Of a DNA stretch of 64,000 nucleotides, positions 6,450-57,184 are shown in pieces (positions within the stretch are counted from its first letter, which is position 1; each line of letters starts with the position of its first letter). Made by a program: the position numbers and the translations under genes. The DNA comes from Candidatus Poribacteria bacterium (GTDB taxonomy: Bacteria; Poribacteria; WGA-4E; B28-G17), in assembly GCA_021162805.1 (NCBI GenBank), contig JAGGXZ010000003.1, forward strand, positions 8,372 to 72,371, given 5' to 3'. A model generated the notes under the pieces. The model did not search any database. It worked only from the letters and a program-made list of their open reading frames with translations, and had not been told where the DNA came from.

Positions 6450-8781
6450 CCGATTTCCTTCGTCTTCTAGCCGAATCGATCGGTATCACCTCATCCTCCC
6501 TCACCTCAAGCTGAGGGTACTCTATCCTCTGGTGGAACATGCCGACGGTAGCTTTGATGAAAGTATCGGATATGTCCTTTATATCCTTGAGTGTGAGGTT
6601 GCTCTCGTCGAGCTGGTCGTCCTCGACCTTCTGGGCTATTACGTTCTGGACGAGCTCTCTGATCTCATTATAGCTGGGATTTCCCTTGGTGAAGGTGGAT
6701 CTAACGGCCGATTCGACCGAATCGGCGAGCATGATAAGGGCGGCCTCTTTCGTCTGGGGTTTAGGCCCCGGATACCTGTAGTCCTCCTCGTTGACGCTCT
6801 TTTCGCCTTTGAGCGCCTTATGGTAGAAATAGGTTATCAGTGAGGTGCCGTGATGTTGTTGGATGATGTTCTGAACGATCTTGGGTAGTTTCTCCTGTTT
6901 GGCTATCTCGACGCCATCTTTAACGTGTGAGATGATGATCCTGGCGCTCATAGCGGGGCCGATTCTATCATGTATGTTCTCTCCGTTCTGGTTCTCTATG
7001 AAGTAGAGCGGATGTCTCATCTTTCCGATATCGTGGTAATAGGCACCGACCCTGACGAGCAATGGATTAGCCCCTATCTCCTCTGCAGCCGCCTCGGCCA
7101 GCTTTGCCACGTTGATGCTGTGATAATATGTGCCCTGAGCAACCCTCTCGAGCTCGGCGAGGATAGGGTTTTTCAGATCCGAGAGCTCCAGCAGCTTTAT
7201 CTCCGTAGTGGTTTGGGCGATATATTCGAAGAAGGGAAGCAATCCCGGTGTGAGGAAGGCCACAGTGAGCCCGCTGGCCATCCCTGAGAGAAGGTTAACG
7301 ATCATCACGTTCAACCCTTCGCTCTGCAATAGCGAAAGGCTCAGGGCGAGGGCGATATTGGCGATCGATACGTAAAAACCGGCCACTATGAGCTCACGCC
7401 GATGCCTCAGCTTTGACAGAGCATATATGGCGACCATCCCTCCGATGAAAACCATGGCGAAATATCCGATCGCTATCTCCAGCGTTTTGCCGCACATCAC
7501 GCTTAAGAGCACGCCTATCATCACGGTAACCAGCATGGCCAGGTGCGGACTGACCAAGACGGCGGTAATGGCGGATGTTATGGCGGTCGGAACCAGCAGC
7601 TCAGGCATGGGCAGGGAATTGGAGCCGTACCTGATTATCAACCTGCCGATACCCATTATCAGGAGGACGGAAAGACATATCGTCATAAGTTTTCTATATT
7701 CATCCAGTATCTCCGGCTCGAATTTGAGGATATAATATACGATCGATAGGAGCAGGGCGACTACGAGGAGGGCAACGCCTACCATAAGCGTGAAAGAGAA
7801 ACCCCTCTGCGACTTGGAAAGCATAGTCAGTTTATCGAGATCCGATCTCGTCAGCTTTTCGCCTTTCGAGACGATCTGTTCGCCCTTGCTCACCTGCTTG
7901 TAGACGTCCTTGACGGCGGCAGCGGCCGCCTTACGCCTTTGAGCGGTTAATTTGGGATCGAAAGAGACGTTCGGCCTTATCAGGTTCCTGACGATCTCCC
8001 CCACCACGTCCTTGAAGGGATAATTCCCCAGCCTCTCGATCTCCCTTTGAACGGCTTCCACCGCTTCGGCCCATAGATATAGCTCCCCAGCTTTGATGAT
8101 GTTCCCATCCGGCTGGATCTCCACGGGCATCCTGGCGGCTATCTCCATATCGGACGGCTGTCGCTCCAGCTTAGAACGCAGCTCCGCCACCGTCTCCCTC
8201 CACCTTCTACTTCCTCCGAGCTCGGATTTCAGCCGTTGAGCAAATTGGCTTGGGACTATCCCACGATCGAGAATCTTCGACATTATGGAAGCAGCCCTGT
8301 CCCTTATCCCATCTATATCGTCATCGCTCGTATCGACCAGTATCTCTCTGGTTTTGAGGGAGAGATAATCCCCTATGATCAGGTCGTTGGCCATCCTTTC
8401 TATTTTATCCCTGCGCGGGATCTGAAGGGATCGAACCCGTTTTACGACCTCGAACATATGGTTGAGATCGTCTATCTGAGATTTCCTGTCTATGTCGAAG
8501 ACGGGCGGAGTTTCGGCTTCGATCTCGGCCTTTCGACGTCGGGTGGCTTCCGAATCGAGGTAGGAGAAGCTTATCGGGGATGTGATCGTATATGGGCTGG
8601 GTTCATTTAGCTTGAGCTGCCCTACGTCTATAGGTTGATACTTAAGAGGCATTGAAAGCCAAACGAGAGCTACGGCGAATATCAGCCCCGTAAGCCACCA
8701 GTGTAGCTTCAATCGCTGCCATAGCGGCGCCGTTTCCACGTCGCCGTTCGAGCTCCTTCTGCCGATCCCTCTCCTTCTCAT
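6442..8781 (-). CDS. 7TM-receptor / HD-domain phosphohydrolase (YqfF/PgpH-like)
   Basis: 779 aa with an extracellular N-domain, a 7-TM block and a C-terminal HD domain ('GAYYHDIGK', 'IIQQHHGTS'). It overlaps ybeY by 8 nt and phoH by 4 nt. Confidence 0.85.
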   Translation of the reverse strand: MRRRGIGRRSSNGDVETAPLWQRLKLHWWLTGLIFAVALVWLSMPLKYQPIDVGQLKLNEPSPYTITSPISFSYLDSEATRRRKAEIEAETPPVFDIDRKSQIDDLNHMFEVVKRVRSLQIPRRDKIERMANDLIIGDYLSLKTREILVDTSDDDIDGIRDRAASIMSKILDRGIVPSQFAQRLKSELGGSRRWRETVAELRSKLERQPSDMEIAARMPVEIQPDGNIIKAGELYLWAEAVEAVQREIERLGNYPFKDVVGEIVRNLIRPNVSFDPKLTAQRRKAAAAAVKDVYKQVSKGEQIVSKGEKLTRSDLDKLTMLSKSQRGFSFTLMVGVALLVVALLLSIVYYILKFEPEILDEYRKLMTICLSVLLIMGIGRLIIRYGSNSLPMPELLVPTAITSAITAVLVSPHLAMLVTVMIGVLLSVMCGKTLEIAIGYFAMVFIGGMVAIYALSKLRHRRELIVAGFYVSIANIALALSLSLLQSEGLNVMIVNLLSGMASGLTVAFLTPGLLPFFEYIAQTTTEIKLLELSDLKNPILAELERVAQGTYYHSINVAKLAEAAAEEIGANPLLVRVGAYYHDIGKMRHPLYFIENQNGENIHDRIGPAMSARIIISHVKDGVEIAKQEKLPKIVQNIIQQHHGTSLITYFYHKALKGEKSVNEEDYRYPGPKPQTKEAALIMLADSVESAVRSTFTKGNPSYNEIRELVQNVIAQKVEDDQLDESNLTLKDIKDISDTFIKATVGMFHQRIEYPQLEVREDEVIPIDSARRRRKSDG

Positions 8782-10132: not shown

Positions 10133-10171
10133 GATATCACCACCGTTATATAAATGTCATTCGCTCTTATT

Positions 10172-23081: not shown

Positions 23082-23945
23082 ATGAATACGCTGAAGATTT
23101 ACGACGAGCTGAAAGATGCTCTGGGTGAACAAGCTGCTAGGGCTATAGCCAGGGTGATAGGCGATCTATATGAGTCGGAGCTTCTCAGATTGAGAGAGGG
23201 TTTCGAGAAGCTGATAGAATCTCATAGGCAGAGCCTCGGCAGATTGGATAGGATAGAGCAAAGCATTGGAGAACTGGCGGAGGCACAGAGGAAAACTGAG
23301 GAGAGGCTGGAGGAACTGGCTGCAAGAGTGGATACGCTGGCTGAAGCGCAGAGGAGGACTGAACAAAGGGTTGAGGAGCTGGCGGAGGCACAGAGGAAAA
23401 CTGAGGAGAGATTAGAAAACCTTGCTGCAAGAGTGGATGCGCTGGCGGAGGCGCAGAAGAGAACCGATCGGAAGGTCGAGGAATTAGCCGAAGCTCAAAG
23501 AAGGACTGAGGAGGAGCTGAGAAAGCTGGCAGCAGCCCAAAGGGAGACGAGAAGGCAATTGGGAGGACTCGCTCACACGGTGGGATACAGGCTGGAGGAC
23601 GAAGCGTTCAAAGCTTTGCCGAAGCTGTTGGGAAGGGATCTGGGAGCCAAGCTCGTAGGGAGACTGAAGAGGGATTATATCGAGATCGCACCCGATAGAT
23701 ACGTCGAGATCAACATACTCGGCAGGGCGGTCAAAGATAGTAAGGAGTTCGTCATCATAGGGGAGGCGAAGAGCCAACTGAGAAAAAGGGATGTGGATGG
23801 ATTTATCAAAAGGTGTGAGGGATTGAAGCGATTTCTTGGGGAGGATCAGATCAGGGTTTTGGTCGTCTACCAGGCACCACCTCAGGTTCAGAGGTATGTT
23901 AGGGAAAAGGGAATCATGCTCTACTTCTCCTATGATTTCAGCTAG
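23082..23945 (+). CDS. coiled-coil repeat + PD-(D/E)xK-like protein (paralog 2)
   Basis: 287 aa with repeated 'LAEAQR(K/R)TEERLE.LAARVD.LAEAQ.RT...VEE', then 'YVEINILGRAVKDSKEFVIIGEAKSQLRKRDVDGF' (E...E-x-K core). It lies 8 nt after the previous stop and 14 nt before the next start. Confidence 0.8.
   Translation: MNTLKIYDELKDALGEQAARAIARVIGDLYESELLRLREGFEKLIESHRQSLGRLDRIEQSIGELAEAQRKTEERLEELAARVDTLAEAQRRTEQRVEELAEAQRKTEERLENLAARVDALAEAQKRTDRKVEELAEAQRRTEEELRKLAAAQRETRRQLGGLAHTVGYRLEDEAFKALPKLLGRDLGAKLVGRLKRDYIEIAPDRYVEINILGRAVKDSKEFVIIGEAKSQLRKRDVDGFIKRCEGLKRFLGEDQIRVLVVYQAPPQVQRYVREKGIMLYFSYDFS
23276..23485 (+). repeat. in-frame 105-bp (35-aa) tandem duplication inside paralog 2
   Basis: 'ggcggaggcacagaggaaaactgaggagag' recurs at 23276 and 23381, an offset of 105 nt. 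A third, more diverged unit follows. Confidence 0.6.
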
Positions 23946-30223: not shown

Positions 30224-31087
30224 TCACCTCCTGCACGAATCTATCCAGGCTTTCAGGGCCTCCTCCCAGAAGGAGATCACACCGTCACGCATAAGGGCGA
30301 CCTTCTCCAAACGCGCTGCCTCTTCCGCTCCCAAAGTTGTTTTTTCTCCCGCGGCCACAGGTATTGCCTGATATCCCGCCTTTCTCAACAGCCTCGCTCT
30401 CCTTGCAGCTCTCTCCACATCCGTGCGATCCACCGTTGCTGAGATCTCCACCGCCAGCCATACCTCCCTATCTTCGGCGTGACGTAACCTGCCCTTTACC
30501 AGGAGGTCAAGGAGCAGCAGGTCGTTAAACTCCCCCGGGCTGAGTTCGGATTCCAATCTGTCCTCGAGGGAATGGGTTTCCACCACCTGAACACGCCTTA
30601 AGAACCTTCCGAAGTAGGCTCCCGCTCGTTTCGCATAAAGCAGCTCCAGCATTTGCCCTATCATCTTTCCAACCCTATCCTCAAGTCTCCCATGTGCCGT
30701 GGCAAGGGTATCCATATGCGTCGTAAGCGTCTCAATCTTCTCTGCGAGCGATTCAAGCCTTTCCTCAGTTCTTCTTTGAGCCTCGGCTAGTTCCTCAACC
30801 CTCCTTTCAAGCGTTTCGAGTCTCTCTGTGAGCGCCCCGATCCTCTCCTCAGTTTTTCTTTGAGCCTCAGCTAGTTCCTCAACCCTCCTTTCGAGGGTTT
30901 CAAGTCTCTCTGTGAGCGTCTCGATCCTCTCCTCGGTTCTCCTCTGCACTTCGACGAGCTCCCTGAAGGCTTCGGGAAGTTTCAAGAGCTCATCTGTAAG
31001 AACGAGCCTTCTGAGCTCCTCCCTCCACTCCGGTTTCTCCTCAAGGAGCTTGATGAGGTCATGAAACTCCTCCACCGTAAATCTCAT
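30224..31087 (-). CDS. coiled-coil repeat + PD-(D/E)xK-like protein (paralog 3)
   Basis: 287 aa with '[10 protein letters not shown](K/R)TEER...[10 protein letters not shown]' repeats, then '[12 protein letters not shown]...[24 protein letters not shown]' (D...E-x-S/K-type core). Its stop lies 7 nt before the uvrB ATG. Confidence 0.8.
30763..30930 (-). repeat. in-frame 84-bp (28-aa) tandem duplication inside paralog 3
   Basis: Units begin at 30763 and 30847 ('cctcagtt(c/t)ttctttgagcctc(g/a)gctagttcctcaaccctcctttc...'), with only a few mismatches. Confidence 0.6.
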
Positions 31088-34403: not shown

Positions 34404-34483
34404 GGTCATTTGTAGTCAATTAGGTCGTTTGGCTTCGCCGTCATCCGGATTTCCGGGTTCATCGTGTGGCGAACCCTATAACT
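34404..34483 (+). repeat. REP-like dispersed repeat, copy A (GTCATTT modules plus the right member of the GH78-flanking inverted repeat)
   Basis: The 41-nt core 'ggtcatttgtagtcaattaggtcgtttggcttcgccgtcat' aligns with 38118-38158 and 56443-56483. It is followed by TCATCCGG...CGAACCCTATAAC. Confidence 0.7.
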
Positions 34484-36273: not shown

Positions 36274-38116
36274 TTTCATGCGTCAGATCCGCGAGGAGCA
36301 TAAGGCCGGGGTTGCTCACACCTTCCTGCTGCATTTCAACGTGACGGACCTCGCAAGAGATCCGATATTCGGATATCTCACCATGTTGGATTACCTGATG
36401 GAACAGTTAAACGATATCGGCTGTGATGTGGTGGTCGCATACGATAGGTCCCAGGGTGTGATATTCCCCAACGTGGGACTCCGTTCGGAGTATCAAAAGC
36501 TGCTCGGACTCGATATCAAACTGCCGGAGGGAACGGAGGTCAAGCGTCCTCCCATCAATTCAAAGCTTCACATCAAGAAGGCCGGTATACCACGTGAGCC
36601 TGAGGATGCGTTGCCTAGGCTGGAGCAGCTTCTCAGACAGAGGCTGGCGGGGTTGAGAATAGGTGTGATAATCTATTTCGTGGAGAGGATCGCTCCCAAC
36701 GGCGATCCGGTCGACCTGCCCGAAGAGACGTTGGTAAACATCGAGACGATCGAGCGATGGGCGATGGACCTGGAGATGAAGTTCCTCGGTAGCATCGTGC
36801 TGCTTGTTGCCGAGAACCTTGCTGACGTTTCACCCCAGATAACGACCAACACGCACATCCGCATCGTGGAGGTGCCCCTACCGGATTATCAGGATAGGCT
36901 CGAATTCATAAAGCACCTCCTGAACCTCCCTGAGCCCGAAAAGAAGGATTCGAGGATGCAATTGGTCAATAAGCTCCGGCTTGAACGGAACATGTCGCCG
37001 GAGAAATTCGCCGCTATGACAGCTGGACTAAGGCTTATAGATATCCACGATCTCGCCTTGAAAGCCGAAGAGGTGAATAAGCCCATAACGGAGGAGATAG
37101 TCATTCAGCGCAAATACGAGTCCGTCCTCTACAGGAGCAGAGGGTTATTGGAGCTGATAAGGCCCTCTAACGTCCTTCAGTTCGTGGGCGGATTAGATCA
37201 CGCATCGAGATATTTCAGGCCCGTCATAGAGATGCTTATGAGGGGAGATCCCGAGACACCGATGGGAGTTCTGCTGGTAGGTCCTCCCGGAACGGGAAAA
37301 ACGCTGACCGTCGAGGCGATGGCGGGGATAAACGGGTTGACCTGCGTCAGGCTCAAGACGGCCAGAGAGGTATGGCTCGCCCAACAGGCAGGAACCTTTG
37401 AAACCTGGGAGAGGATGTATGAAAGGGATCTATCACTGGCTTTGACGACGATAAGAAACCTCGCCCCGGTGGTGGTTTTCATCGACGAAATGGAGAGATT
37501 CACGTTGGAGAGAGGCACGGGGTTTCAGAGAATACTCCCCATAGAGCTGCTCAACTTCATGGATAACCCGCAAAACAGGGGAAAGGTTCTGTGGGTCGGA
37601 GCGACGTCCAGGCCGGATCTGATAGATCCCAGCTTCAGAAAGGCGGGCAGGTTTGACGATAAGCTTGTATATCTGATCCCCCACAGGAAGGACAGGGCGG
37701 ATATCCTCAGAAAGATGTTCGCCAAACACAGAATCCCACATGCCGATAATCTGGATCTCAATAAGCTAGCTGGCGGGGATTTCCCCGAGGAGATAACGGG
37801 CGCCGATCTGGAGCTTATCGCTCGTAGAAGCCTTACGATCGCTCAGGCAAGTGGGCACAAGCAGGTGATGCAAAACGATCTTATGGCTGCAGCGAGGGAT
37901 TTCGTGCCCAGATACTCGCCCCAGGTCTATGAGTTTCTCTCCCTGCTGGCTTTGAGGGAGGCGAACTCGCGATTCATGGTGCCGGAAAGGGTCCCTGACT
38001 CGATAAGGAAGATCGCCTTCGATGGTGAAAGAATCGATAAGGCGAAGATAGAGTCCCGCCTCATAGAGCTTGAGAGGGAGCTCAGGATAAGACAGGGCAG
38101 CCGCTATAACTTTTAA
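36266..38116 (+). CDS. AAA+ ATPase with a large non-catalytic N-terminal domain (Ycf46-like architecture)
   Basis: Walker A 'LLVGPPGTGKTL', Walker B 'VVFIDEME', 'SRPDLIDPSFRKAGRFD'. The N-terminal ~330 aa lack a P-loop. It overlaps the waaA stop by 8 nt (ATGCCTGA). Confidence 0.8.
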   Translation: MPDFMRQIREEHKAGVAHTFLLHFNVTDLARDPIFGYLTMLDYLMEQLNDIGCDVVVAYDRSQGVIFPNVGLRSEYQKLLGLDIKLPEGTEVKRPPINSKLHIKKAGIPREPEDALPRLEQLLRQRLAGLRIGVIIYFVERIAPNGDPVDLPEETLVNIETIERWAMDLEMKFLGSIVLLVAENLADVSPQITTNTHIRIVEVPLPDYQDRLEFIKHLLNLPEPEKKDSRMQLVNKLRLERNMSPEKFAAMTAGLRLIDIHDLALKAEEVNKPITEEIVIQRKYESVLYRSRGLLELIRPSNVLQFVGGLDHASRYFRPVIEMLMRGDPETPMGVLLVGPPGTGKTLTVEAMAGINGLTCVRLKTAREVWLAQQAGTFETWERMYERDLSLALTTIRNLAPVVVFIDEMERFTLERGTGFQRILPIELLNFMDNPQNRGKVLWVGATSRPDLIDPSFRKAGRFDDKLVYLIPHRKDRADILRKMFAKHRIPHADNLDLNKLAGGDFPEEITGADLELIARRSLTIAQASGHKQVMQNDLMAAARDFVPRYSPQVYEFLSLLALREANSRFMVPERVPDSIRKIAFDGERIDKAKIESRLIELERELRIRQGSRYNF

Positions 38117-38117
38117 C

Positions 38118-38190
38118 GGTCATTTGTAGTCATTGAGTCATTTCGCTGCGCTGTCATTATGAGGATAACCACAAATGACGATAAATGACA
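38118..38190 (+). repeat. REP-like dispersed repeat, copy B
   Basis: 'ggtcatttgtagtcattgagtcatttcgctgcgctgtcatt' carries 4 GTCATT modules, followed by inverted 'acaaatgacgataaatgaca'. It starts 2 nt after the AAA+ stop codon. Confidence 0.7.
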
Positions 38191-38222
38191 GCAGGTGATA
38201 TCCCAGGGCGGGTGATGAAATC

Positions 38223-41114: not shown

Positions 41115-41258
41115 ATGAAATACGATCCTAACATATATCACCGCCGATCGATTCGGTTGAAAGGTTATGATTACAGCCGTCCGGGAGCATATTTCATCAC
41201 CATTTGCACCCACAACCGGAGATGTCTGTTTGGCGAGGTGGTGGCATCTAGACCCTGA
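41115..41258 (+). pseudogene. N-terminal remnant of a RAYT / IS200-like Y1 (HUH) transposase
   Basis: Own translation: MKYDPNIYHRRSIRLKGYDYSRPGAYFITICTHNRRCLFGEVVASRP*. This matches the very conserved N-terminus of REP-associated tyrosine transposase-like proteins. It stops after 47 codons, before the HUH motif. Confidence 0.6.
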
Positions 41259-47475: not shown

Positions 47476-48081
47476 TCACCTTTTGAAGAGTATGGTCAAT
47501 ATGATGGTGACCCACATCGGGAACAACACGCCGATAATTATCCCCACAAGCCATCTGAAGTTCTTATGTATCTCAGATTTTAGCTCACCTATTTCAGATC
47601 TCAACCCGGTTATCTCCCCCTGCATATCGAGCCTCAGTTTTTCTATCTCGCTCATTATCTCTGACCTCAGCTTGTCCATCCTAGATTCCATTTCCGATCT
47701 CAGCCCATCAATCCTAGTATGCATCTCTGCCCGCATGTCGCTCATCTCGGATCTCAGACCGGTTATCTCACCCAGCATCTCTGATCTCAGCCCGTCGATT
47801 CTAGTATGCATCTCCGCTCGCATGTCGCTCATCTCAGATCTCAGACCGGTTATCTCACCTAACATTTCCGATCTCAGCCCGTCGATTCTAGTATGCATCT
47901 CTGCCCGCATGTCGCTCATCTCGGATCTCAGACCGACAGTCTCTCCTCTCAGCGTATCCGTCTCGGACTTCACAGCGTTGCGTAGATCGCTTATCTCCAC
48001 CTCTATATGGTTCAACCTCTGGTTGATCTGTTCCATTATCCCCTCAAGCCTTGCTGTTCTTTCCTCCGTGGTTTCCTCCAT
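47476..48081 (-). CDS. tandem-repeat coiled-coil protein with a C-terminal TM anchor
   Basis: 201 aa with AGGAGGT 9 nt before the ATG. Three near-identical 29-aa units 'GLRSEMSDMRAEMHTRIDGLRSEMLGEIT', and a C-terminus 'FRWLVGIIIGVLFPMWVTIILTILFKR'. Confidence 0.75.
   Translation of the reverse strand: MEETTEERTARLEGIMEQINQRLNHIEVEISDLRNAVKSETDTLRGETVGLRSEMSDMRAEMHTRIDGLRSEMLGEITGLRSEMSDMRAEMHTRIDGLRSEMLGEITGLRSEMSDMRAEMHTRIDGLRSEMESRMDKLRSEIMSEIEKLRLDMQGEITGLRSEIGELKSEIHKNFRWLVGIIIGVLFPMWVTIILTILFKR
47690..47934 (-). repeat. 87-bp in-frame tandem repeat, about 2.8 copies
   Basis: Units run 47690-47776, 47777-47863 and 47864-~47934, with only a handful of substitutions between them. Confidence 0.9.
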
Positions 48082-56350: not shown

Positions 56351-56441
56351 CTGATCTCCTCACTCACTTAAACGAGATTGCTCTTACTTTCCTTGAGTGT
56401 AATATCCATCTATGGCCAATTGTCCACCGTCCACAGCTCGA

Positions 56442-56527
56442 CCGTCATTTGCTGTCATTAGGTCATTTGGCTTCGCCGTCATTGAAAATGACCATAAATG
56501 ACGACAAATGTAAATGACCTATAATAA
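56442..56527 (+). repeat. REP-like dispersed repeat, copy C (most complete, imperfect palindrome)
   Basis: The left arm 'cgtcatttgctgtcattaggtcatttggcttcgccgtcatt' has 4 GTCATT modules. A 'gaa' centre follows, then the right arm 'aatgaccataaatgacgacaaatgtaaatgacc'. It lies between the thiE stop and the mscS-like start. Confidence 0.75.
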
Positions 56528-56542
56528 GAATCTCTGCTAAAC

Positions 56543-57184
56543 TCAGCGGTAATATGAGCGATGAGTTTTTATGATCTCAGTGAGAACTTTGGCCGCCCGA
56601 CGGACATCGAGGGCGGACACGACCGCTGAGATAACGGCGATGCTATCCGCCCCCGCCTCTATGACCTGTCTGACGTTAAGCGAGTTTATCCCACCTATCG
56701 CAACCACAGGCACATCCACGGCCTCCTTCACCCTACGGATCATATCCACGCCGGCGACCGGCCCCGCGTCCGGCTTTGTCGTGGTGGGAAATATCGGGCC
56801 GATGGCGACGTAGTCCGCACCCTCCTCGACGGCCCTGATCGCCTCCTCCTCGTTATCCACCGATGCGCCCACGATCCTCCTGCCCATCAGCCTGCGAGCG
56901 TGTCCTATCGGCATATCCTCAGCACCCAGATGTACCCCGTCTGCCTCGACGGCCAACGCCACGTCAACCCTATCGTTGACTATAAAGACCACTTCCGCCT
57001 CATGTGTGATCCGTCTCAATGTCTCGCCGATTTGAACGAGCTCTCTCGTCGAGGCGGATTTATCCCTGAGCTGCACGATCTCCGCCCCACCTGCTATCGC
57101 CTCGCGGATTACCTCCACATGGCTTCTGCCACGAGACAGGTTCGGATCGGTCAGTACGTAAAGCGATCTCAGAGGAAACCTCAT
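56543..57184 (-). CDS. thiE: thiamine-phosphate synthase
   Basis: 'LYVLTD', 'IVQLRDK', 'FIVNDRVDVALAVEADGVHLG', 'IGPIFPTTTK', 'VVAIGGI'. Confidence 0.9.
   Translation of the reverse strand: MRFPLRSLYVLTDPNLSRGRSHVEVIREAIAGGAEIVQLRDKSASTRELVQIGETLRRITHEAEVVFIVNDRVDVALAVEADGVHLGAEDMPIGHARRLMGRRIVGASVDNEEEAIRAVEEGADYVAIGPIFPTTTKPDAGPVAGVDMIRRVKEAVDVPVVAIGGINSLNVRQVIEAGADSIAVISAVVSALDVRRAAKVLTEIIKTHRSYYR

Follow-up and report, generated by a model that had tools for sequence, protein, structure and literature searches.

What are the short palindromic repeats that recur between the genes of a 64-kb stretch of Poribacteria-like DNA, and how did they come to lie there? The stretch (positions 8,372 to 72,371 of contig JAGGXZ010000003.1, assembly GCA_021162805.1; 64,000 nt, referred to here as the window) carries three copies, A, B and C, of a repeat built from the module GTCATT and its inverse AATGAC. 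An initial annotation of the window read them as a system of repetitive extragenic palindromes (REPs) with a REP-associated tyrosine transposase (RAYT). We favor a different answer, to which we assign a probability of roughly 0.6: A, B and C come from a family of small inserted elements and lack its gene; the family is found in several phyla, resembles the intervening sequences (IVSs) of 23S rRNA genes, and has as its complete form a cassette in which two arms of repeated modules enclose a gene of the four-helix-bundle family PF05635.

Three copies of one repeat in the window

Copies A (34404-34444), B (38118-38190) and C (56443-56519) were confirmed and lie where the initial annotation had placed them, with pairwise identities over the 41-nt core of 36/42 (A-C), 34/42 (A-B) and 33/41 (B-C). 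When up to two mismatches are allowed, the 16-mer GTCATTTGNNGTCANT has seven matches in the window, every one of them inside A, B or C, where 0.92 matches are expected and none of 100 shuffled sequences attains seven. All ten GTCATTT heptamers of the window and 14 of its 20 GTCATT/AATGAC hexamers also fall within the three copies. These hexamer counts and shuffles, together with the loci found outside the window, bear out the description of a dispersed, palindromic and essentially intergenic family that does not arise by chance. The possible solo modules pointed out earlier at 10153 and 62686 are single hexamers, not distinguishable from chance. A candidate genome-wide avoidance of GTCATT was rejected, the deficit (6 observed vs 16 expected under an order-3 model, rank 21/2031) being like that of other A+T-rich hexamers.

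B and C are two-armed and A is a decayed solo arm; none of the three is assigned to a strand. In copy B, four GTCATT modules (38119, 38129, 38137 and 38153), with a hairpin-size spacer CGCTGCGCT at 38144-38152, are followed after a centre of 15 nt by two AATGAC modules (38174 and 38184). Copy C has four GTCATT modules (56444, 56454, 56462 and 56478), with the mini-hairpin spacer GGCTTCGCC at 56469-56477, and after a centre of only 3 nt three AATGAC modules (56487, 56497 and 56513), so that the inverted AAATGAC modules ascribed to both copies are present, two in B and three in C. The left arm of A holds the forward modules GTCATT, GTCAAT, GTCGTT and GTCATC, three of the four degenerate, as well as the mini-hairpin spacer GGCTTCGCC (34431-34439), and its AATGAC arm is absent. 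Module spacing in the window copies falls into classes of 8, 10 and 15-16 nt. The site of copy C is identical in six further contigs from the same organism.

Occurrence in other genomes

The 21-mer GTCRTTTSGCTKCGCYGTCAT fits all three window copies, and its matches make up a DNA-selected set of at least 120 loci in at least 70 assemblies (loci outside the window are numbered with the prefix L), where the chance expectation for a pattern of this kind in the collection is, by a rough estimate, a handful of matches. Carriers occur in Bacteroidota (Mucilaginibacter, Spirosoma, Fibrella, Bacteroidales, Saprospiraceae and others), Calditrichaceae (Calditrichota) and Ignavibacteriales (Ignavibacteriota), and further in Nitrospinota, Desulfobacterota, Deferribacteres and Abditibacterium; element-rich complete genomes are those of Spirosoma sp. 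KNUC1025, Mucilaginibacter flavus and Fibrella. The initial annotation had taken the system for one not yet described in this lineage and had named a total of only three copies genome-wide as a finding that would weaken its reading; the family is real and spread over several phyla, far more lineages than supposed, and with at least 120 loci outside the window it is not limited to three copies.

By sequence and module order, A, B and C belong to this family. In 121 clusters among the loci listed, successive modules show 423 transitions of the type ++, 319 of the type --, 64 of the type +- and none of the type -+, and the GTCATT array always comes first and the AATGAC array second; about half of the clusters are single-armed, like A. 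Start-to-start spacing again falls into three classes (7-8, 10-11 and 14-18 nt), with 7-8 nt found in 185 of 742 same-orientation steps. The long spacers are able to form a small hairpin in 405 of 444 cases, with stems that covary (GGC/GCC, GCC/GGC, GCGC/GCGC, GGGC/GCCC) and loops (TTC in 151, TGC in 46 and TAC in 22) that read GNA within GC stems on the AATGAC strand. GNA loops in GC stems correspond to the very stable d(GCGNAGC) DNA mini-hairpin (PMC13037366).

The elements are nearly always intergenic and often fill the entire gap between co-directional genes, the flanking genes being tandem in 73, divergent in 16 and convergent in 9 of the loci listed. The orientation of GTCRTTTSGCTKCGCYGTCAT relative to transcription shows no significant preference (41 vs 27, P = 0.11). 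Two loci (L156 and L162) are identical save for an 80-nt indel within the right array, which shows that arrays change copy number in place at a fixed site. No Rfam family matches the window at the gathering score, and copy C has no match above noise at E values up to 10; Rfam matches are also absent from eight element-rich loci and eight cassette loci, and no rRNA was found in the window or in or around the eight cassette loci. Plasmid and phage collections contain no DNA match to copy C. At L091 (5962-6583), from Mucilaginibacter flavus, 89 forward GTCATT modules with a period of 7 extend over 620 nt and are followed by seven inverted modules, and a long open frame passes through the array.

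A PF05635 gene between the arms

At L014, L050, L086 and L092, four loci that belong to different phyla, a gene of 121-127 aa lies exactly between the left and the right arm. The encoded protein matches PF05635 (23S rRNA intervening-sequence protein; E = 1e-26), TIGR02436 (four helix bundle protein; E = 6e-26) and PDB entry 2GSC (E = 6.6e-5), with a weak match to NF033474 (Avd, a protein of diversity-generating retroelements, DGRs). Gene-carrying elements make up only 4 of the 120 DNA-selected loci among those listed, and gene-less copies predominate.

A reciprocal set of 80 metagenomic loci was chosen solely by protein similarity (67-81% identity to the inter-arm protein), and it therefore provides a test that is independent of the DNA motif. 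Both arms (two or more GTCATT in the 250 nt upstream, two or more AATGAC in the 250 nt downstream) are present in 65 of the 80 loci, and neither arm in 4. Summed over the 80 loci, the upstream flanks hold 348 forward and 28 reverse modules and the downstream flanks 11 forward and 365 reverse. Arms and PF05635 gene are linked. The cassettes have a median length of 524 nt, with the gene filling the space between the arms; this gene is co-directional with both of its neighbors in 28 of 35 resolved cases, at gaps of mostly less than 60 nt, and is under purifying selection (median dN/dS about 0.12).

Other subfamilies of PF05635 are flanked by other modules. The gene at L163 lies between GGTTGATGG and CCATCAACC, that at L186 between GATTTGG and CCAAATC, and that at L085 beside a GCTGATAGC-like module; on plasmids of Calothrix and Nostoc punctiforme, genes named 'four helix bundle' or 'S23 ribosomal protein' are accompanied by inverted heptamer arrays of the GGGTGTA/TACACCC type, and a Nostoc edaphicum plasmid gene has GGGAACA/TGTTCCC arrays on its flanks. 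All nine such other-subfamily genes lack GTCATT arrays, indicating that the module goes with the protein subfamily. In the part of the literature covered by our search, we found no report that ties PF05635 genes outside rRNA to flanking repeat arrays.

Cassettes may also stand close together. On the minus strand of L050 (1250-2420), two four-helix-bundle cassettes are arranged head to tail, the first of the GTCATT type and the second of a TACTGCC type. Elements or cassettes occupy successive spacers of ABC genes at L003 (1175-3959), L077 (2120-4754), L103 (1703-1836) and L163 (1450-3200), loci of Bacteroidota and Calditrichota with tandem paralogous MacB/FtsX-type permease genes and their ATPase genes; at L163, one ABC ATPase gene is bracketed by two cassettes with different modules.

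Gene setting and insertion of B and C

The window is bacterial, its LigA being closest to proteins named Candidatus Poribacteria (60-66% identity), and all three copies lie upstream of a gene. Copy A is situated in a divergent spacer and, as the initial annotation had it, upstream of GH78: it ends 24 nt before the start codon of this rhamnosidase gene (minus strand, ATG at about 34380), and a promoter-like site at 34566-34538 (minus strand, by consensus match only) would put it in the 5' untranslated region. Copy B begins 2 nt past the TAA of an AAA-ATPase gene, again as described before, and lies between that stop (38116) and the start of a UPF0182 gene (38223), all on the plus strand. Copy C lies between thiE and an MscS-type channel gene; the genes flanking B, and likewise those flanking C, are co-directional.

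Relatives have empty sites for B and C, which identifies both as lineage-specific insertions, made at very tight junctions. In two relatives with LigA proteins 86% and 81% identical to that of the window, the order Kdo-transferase, AAA, UPF0182, LigA is kept, and the gap between AAA and UPF0182 is 106 nt in the window vs 16 nt (L207) and 25 nt (L209), which delimits an insertion carrying B at approximately 38098-38205 (no strand assigned). In a third relative (L211, MscS 79% identical), thiE and mscS overlap by 4 nt (ATGA), where the window has a spacing of 192 nt, so that the insertion carrying C (56362-56566, minus strand) split an overlapping gene pair. The C-terminus of ThiE reads ...EIIKTHRSYYR* in the window and ...ERIKGVR* in L211; from this difference it follows that the last codons (...THRSYYR*) and the stop (56543-56566, minus strand) fall within the inserted segment. 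The statement that all copies are strictly intergenic therefore fails for C, whose larger unit at 56380-56560 supplies the last codons and stop of thiE. GTCATT and AATGAC modules are absent from about 45 kb of the relatives' DNA (L207, L209 and L211). Insertions of this kind matter for annotation, in that those inside operons can separate genes whose translation is coupled and can alter gene ends, as with thiE here.

Two contigs from the same or a 94%-related organism (L125 and L213) begin at position 1 inside the element upstream of mscS, which indicates that the repeat breaks metagenomic assemblies. At this mscS site, the AATGAC arm of the 94% relative is built in a different way.

With their small size, lack of coding capacity, inverted ends and intergenic insertion, and with a longer gene-carrying relative that they outnumber, the copies resemble miniature inverted-repeat transposable elements (MITEs). 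They could then be ordinary MITEs of a DDE or serine/tyrosine transposon whose autonomous partner resides elsewhere, the arrays serving as subterminal transposase-binding sites. Such arrays would look like the inward-facing motifs seen at both ends, the empty sites of B and C in relatives are what such insertions would leave, and a gene present in only 4 of the 120 DNA-selected loci fits a preponderance of non-autonomous copies. However, no target-site duplication was found at B, at C or at the cassette flanks, and in the 120 DNA-selected loci the arms neither enclose nor adjoin a transposase gene; the four-helix-bundle protein is the sole product of the long form, and its gene takes up the inter-arm space in the protein-selected cassettes. 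Arm architecture is variable, with length and spacing that vary freely and arrays that change copy number in place, and the plasmid, phage and viral collections gave no matches. A search of viral contigs for the cassette protein and for two further PF05635 subfamilies likewise turned up no relative. We consider a MITE origin of this ordinary kind very unlikely.

The RayT-like fragment and the REP/RAYT reading

The 'RAYT-like remnant' noted earlier at 41115-41258 (plus strand) holds up: its 47 aa are an N-terminal fragment of a RayT-like Y1 transposase, with database relatives that bear the names RayT or putative transposase. The fragment is inserted between UPF0182 and ligA, and by itself it matches no Pfam or NCBIfam model. 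Its 120 best database relatives all have lengths of 39-83 aa, and truncated N-terminal stubs of this family thus seem to be common. The UPF0182-ligA gap is 2-4 nt in relatives, which identifies the fragment as a separate lineage-specific insertion, and there is no GTCATT module beside it in the 231-nt spacer.

If the palindromes were REP doublets moved as single-stranded hairpins by a RAYT encoded elsewhere, this fragment would be the relic of such an enzyme. The elements are indeed dispersed and extragenic with inverted arms, as are REPINs (hairpin-forming REP doublets); like these they are abundant and include decayed singlets, and the GC mini-hairpins with GNA loops match d(GCGNAGC), which would suit recognition of single-stranded DNA (PMC13037366). 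A further likeness is that one protein gene lies between repeat copies and co-varies with them (PMC3116915). In published REPIN systems, however, the REPs are in the flanks of the RAYT gene (PMC3116915), whereas the window fragment has no adjoining modules and inserted independently. A tblastn search with the fragment found no RayT homologue in the 120 DNA-selected loci (about 0.8 Mb; this search covered the DNA-selected set), and clustering of 830 flanking open reading frames from these loci yielded no recurrent transposase, only ordinary abundant families. A weak match at L115 was rejected as spurious, lying antisense within a histidine ammonia-lyase gene.

The repeats themselves differ from REPs as well. 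REP hairpins have at their foot a conserved, unpaired 5' tag (GTAG or CGTC); GTAG, which the initial annotation had noted in A and B, is not conserved in the present family, being created by only 71 of 517 short spacers (14%), and ATT, ATA, GTT and GTG are as common or commoner. Inverted arms are present (64 +- vs 0 -+), but they are arrays of modules without extra complementarity within an element, rather than a single REP hairpin with a 5' tag, and most modules have no adjacent hairpin. The gene that is regularly enclosed by the arms belongs to PF05635; it encodes a four-helix bundle and not a Y1 HUH transposase, and in the data here it is not restricted to a single copy per genome. The proposal of a REP/RAYT-type system is thus not borne out, with a PF05635 gene between the arms in place of any RAYT link, and we regard the REP/RAYT explanation as very improbable.

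Folding of the copies and host function

Copy C is the core of a composite repeat unit (56380-56560, no strand assigned) with the outer inverted segments CTTGAGTGT...ACACTCAG and GTCCACCGTCC..., which recur with 79-85% identity at three non-syntenic sites (L052, L117 and L119) of the metagenome-assembled genome (MAG) CAZHVH01. The intact copy at L052 forms a near-continuous hairpin of about 200 nt (-75 kcal/mol, z = -6.7); in the window, where about 17 nt of the right outer arm are lost, the unit folds at -55 kcal/mol (z = -2.3). As RNA, copy C folds at -25.5 kcal/mol (z = -4.5) on the plus strand and at -27 kcal/mol (z = -3.9) on the minus strand. A terminal inverted-repeat stem is thus seen in that C and the composite unit out-fold shuffled sequence and in that inward-facing arms are present in 65 of 80 cassettes.

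Hairpins between co-directional genes, often occupying the whole spacer and, in the window, always upstream of a gene, could also be host-selected signals without mobile origin, either intercistronic terminators or mRNA stabilizers, which would accord with the good folds of C and of the intact composite unit, or operator arrays of a chromosomal regulator. The stems lack a following T-run, and the regions of B and C contain no site like an intrinsic terminator (GC-rich stem and T-run); around A, the scan gave a single site (34962-34947) about 500 nt away from the copy; and convergent gene ends are the rarest context (9/98). A regulator-site array, a possibility the initial annotation had raised against its own reading, is unlikely because the neighbors are unrelated (GH78, UPF0182 and MscS in the window; ABC transporters, kinases and TonB receptors elsewhere), because the same 21-mer is common to several phyla, and because close relatives have empty orthologous sites at which the genes are even coupled in translation. 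Nor is there a constraint on the number or spacing of modules. Of the explanations considered here, we find a purely host-selected signal the hardest to credit.

Relation to intervening sequences and STRRs

The closest known elements are the S23p-encoding IVSs of 23S rRNA genes and the short tandemly repeated repetitive sequences (STRRs) of cyanobacteria; the window copies and their relatives are the same kind of element, now in operon spacers. What is new here is that the arms are module arrays, that gene-less derivatives are abundant, and that they occur in phyla for which the literature covered by our partial search holds no such reports.

In the 23S rRNA IVSs of the Leptospira, Coxiella and Xanthomonas type, the enclosed gene belongs to the same family as the cassette gene, and in both cases inverted repeats are able to form a stem around it. 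The Coxiella IVS combines an S23p reading frame with a 28-bp terminal inverted-repeat stem that is cut by RNase III, and its 5' part holds tandem GACAGAT heptamers whose number differs between strains (PMC4990558). IVSs of this type are removed from the transcript by RNase III, and the flanking rRNA ends are not religated. Gene-carrying and gene-less forms exist side by side in the present family, and they are also found together among rRNA insertions of bacteria of the candidate phyla radiation (bioRxiv 10.1101/2024.02.27.582315). In contrast to IVSs, which occupy a helix of a 23S (or 16S) rRNA gene, the present elements lie outside rRNA genes, between protein-coding genes of operons; their arms are arrays of a 6-nt module and not one continuous stem; and the window copies lack a PF05635/TIGR02436 reading frame, which complete family members carry.

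To our knowledge, STRRs have not so far been tied to PF05635 genes, and the literature searched, with partial coverage, shows no such link. STRR2 is reportedly TTGGTCA (Mazel et al., 1990); repeated in tandem it would read (GTCATTG)n, the form with a period of 7 and thus of the commonest spacing class in the present family. STRRs of heterocyst-forming cyanobacteria are intergenic tandem repeats of about 7 nt that are hairpin-capable and have no known function (PMC2670836). In the present family, too, units of about 7 nt are repeated in tandem between genes and are able to form hairpins, and the heptamer arrays on Nostoc and Calothrix plasmids, which are of like kind, flank four-helix-bundle genes in inverted orientation. 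The lineages differ, being Poribacteria-like, of the Fibrobacteres-Chlorobi-Bacteroidetes (FCB) group, Nitrospinota and Desulfobacterota rather than heterocyst-forming cyanobacteria.

A proposed mechanism, and what weighs against it

We take the complete form to be a cassette of about 0.5 kb, which lies in sense orientation in very tight gaps between co-directional host genes. The shared arms suggest that A, B and C derive from such cassettes as non-autonomous or relic forms, MITE-like and probably near neutral. Transcribed with their operons, the arms would fold into hairpins tolerant of any pairing register, since any GUCAUU can pair with any AAUGAC. By analogy with the terminal stem of the 23S rRNA IVS, these hairpins would bracket the gene, and RNase III could cut them likewise. 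The module would be the unit recognized by the cognate four-helix-bundle protein, because its sequence changes with the protein subfamily. The mini-hairpins would be compatible with a single-stranded-DNA mechanism, and kinship with Avd with one assisted by a reverse transcriptase.

The latter can be carried further, to templated synthesis in which a reverse transcriptase and an Avd-like bundle protein copy a short template repeatedly, as in DGRs, and the elements spread by way of an RNA intermediate. The DGR accessory protein Avd belongs to PF05635 (PMC10053308), and the cassette protein has its weak match to NF033474; the arrays are tandem copies of a short unit in very variable number, up to the 89 of L091; and the cassettes lie in sense orientation inside transcription units. 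Against this, no reverse transcriptase recurs among the neighbors of the DNA-selected loci, and replication slippage accounts equally well for the change in copy number. We think templated synthesis very unlikely.

Several observations weigh against our own interpretation of A, B and C as gene-less derivatives of PF05635 cassettes. The window itself has no PF05635 gene (no six-frame match at E < 0.01 and no tblastn match), none was seen in five loci of the sister MAG, and no gene remnants were seen in the centres of gene-less copies. A four-helix bundle without known catalytic motif cannot alone explain insertion, and the missing target-site duplication at B, C and the cassette flanks is joined by the lack of any common target. 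Because the search pattern itself favors arrays, the DNA-selected loci are biased towards them, a bias that the protein-selected set does not share. Among the other subfamilies, the TACTGCC arrays around the second gene of L050 (1441-1824) are direct and not inverted, and a Pseudanabaena plasmid gene has no flanking array. As for the stem, complementarity between the two arms of one element does not exceed that between arms taken from different elements (0.52 vs 0.50, P = 0.28), and left arms do not correlate with right arms in their number of modules (rho = 0.04), so that no selection for any one stem is evident. Copy B folds no better than shuffled sequence (-17.3 kcal/mol, z = -1.0), and copy A has z = -0.41 on the plus strand and folds weakly on the minus strand (z = -2.06).

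More tentatively, and with odds that we would put somewhat below even, PF05635 genes and their subfamily-specific arrays of modules of about 7 nt may form one widespread and unrecognized class of selfish or semi-domesticated cassettes that unites S23p IVSs, STRRs and REP-like palindromes. This would be a transposase-less, co-evolving pair of protein and repeat comparable to RAYT and REPIN, in which the protein would recognize its own module and, together with a host or partner enzyme, drive the spread or maintenance of the arrays. We know of no function for PF05635/TIGR02436 outside DGRs; if the link holds, this very large family gains a testable partner in the adjoining short repeat arrays, several unexplained kinds of intergenic repeat in many phyla receive a common origin, and a second case, after RAYT-REPIN, is added of a small gene that co-evolves with genome-wide miniature palindromes.

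Further repeats in the window

The window contains other repeats besides A, B and C. Three tandem copies of an 87-nt unit, 80-81% identical, lie at 47657-47946, and in a contig of the same organism (L121), overlapping staggered BLAST segments over 47689-47935 of the window may reflect a different copy number. Two internally repetitive coding regions, at 23250-23530 (plus strand; units of 42, 63 and 105 nt) and at 30725-30936 (84 nt), are mutually 73-86% complementary across 7 kb, which points to a pair of related genes, repeat-rich (coiled-coil-like) and encoded on opposite strands.

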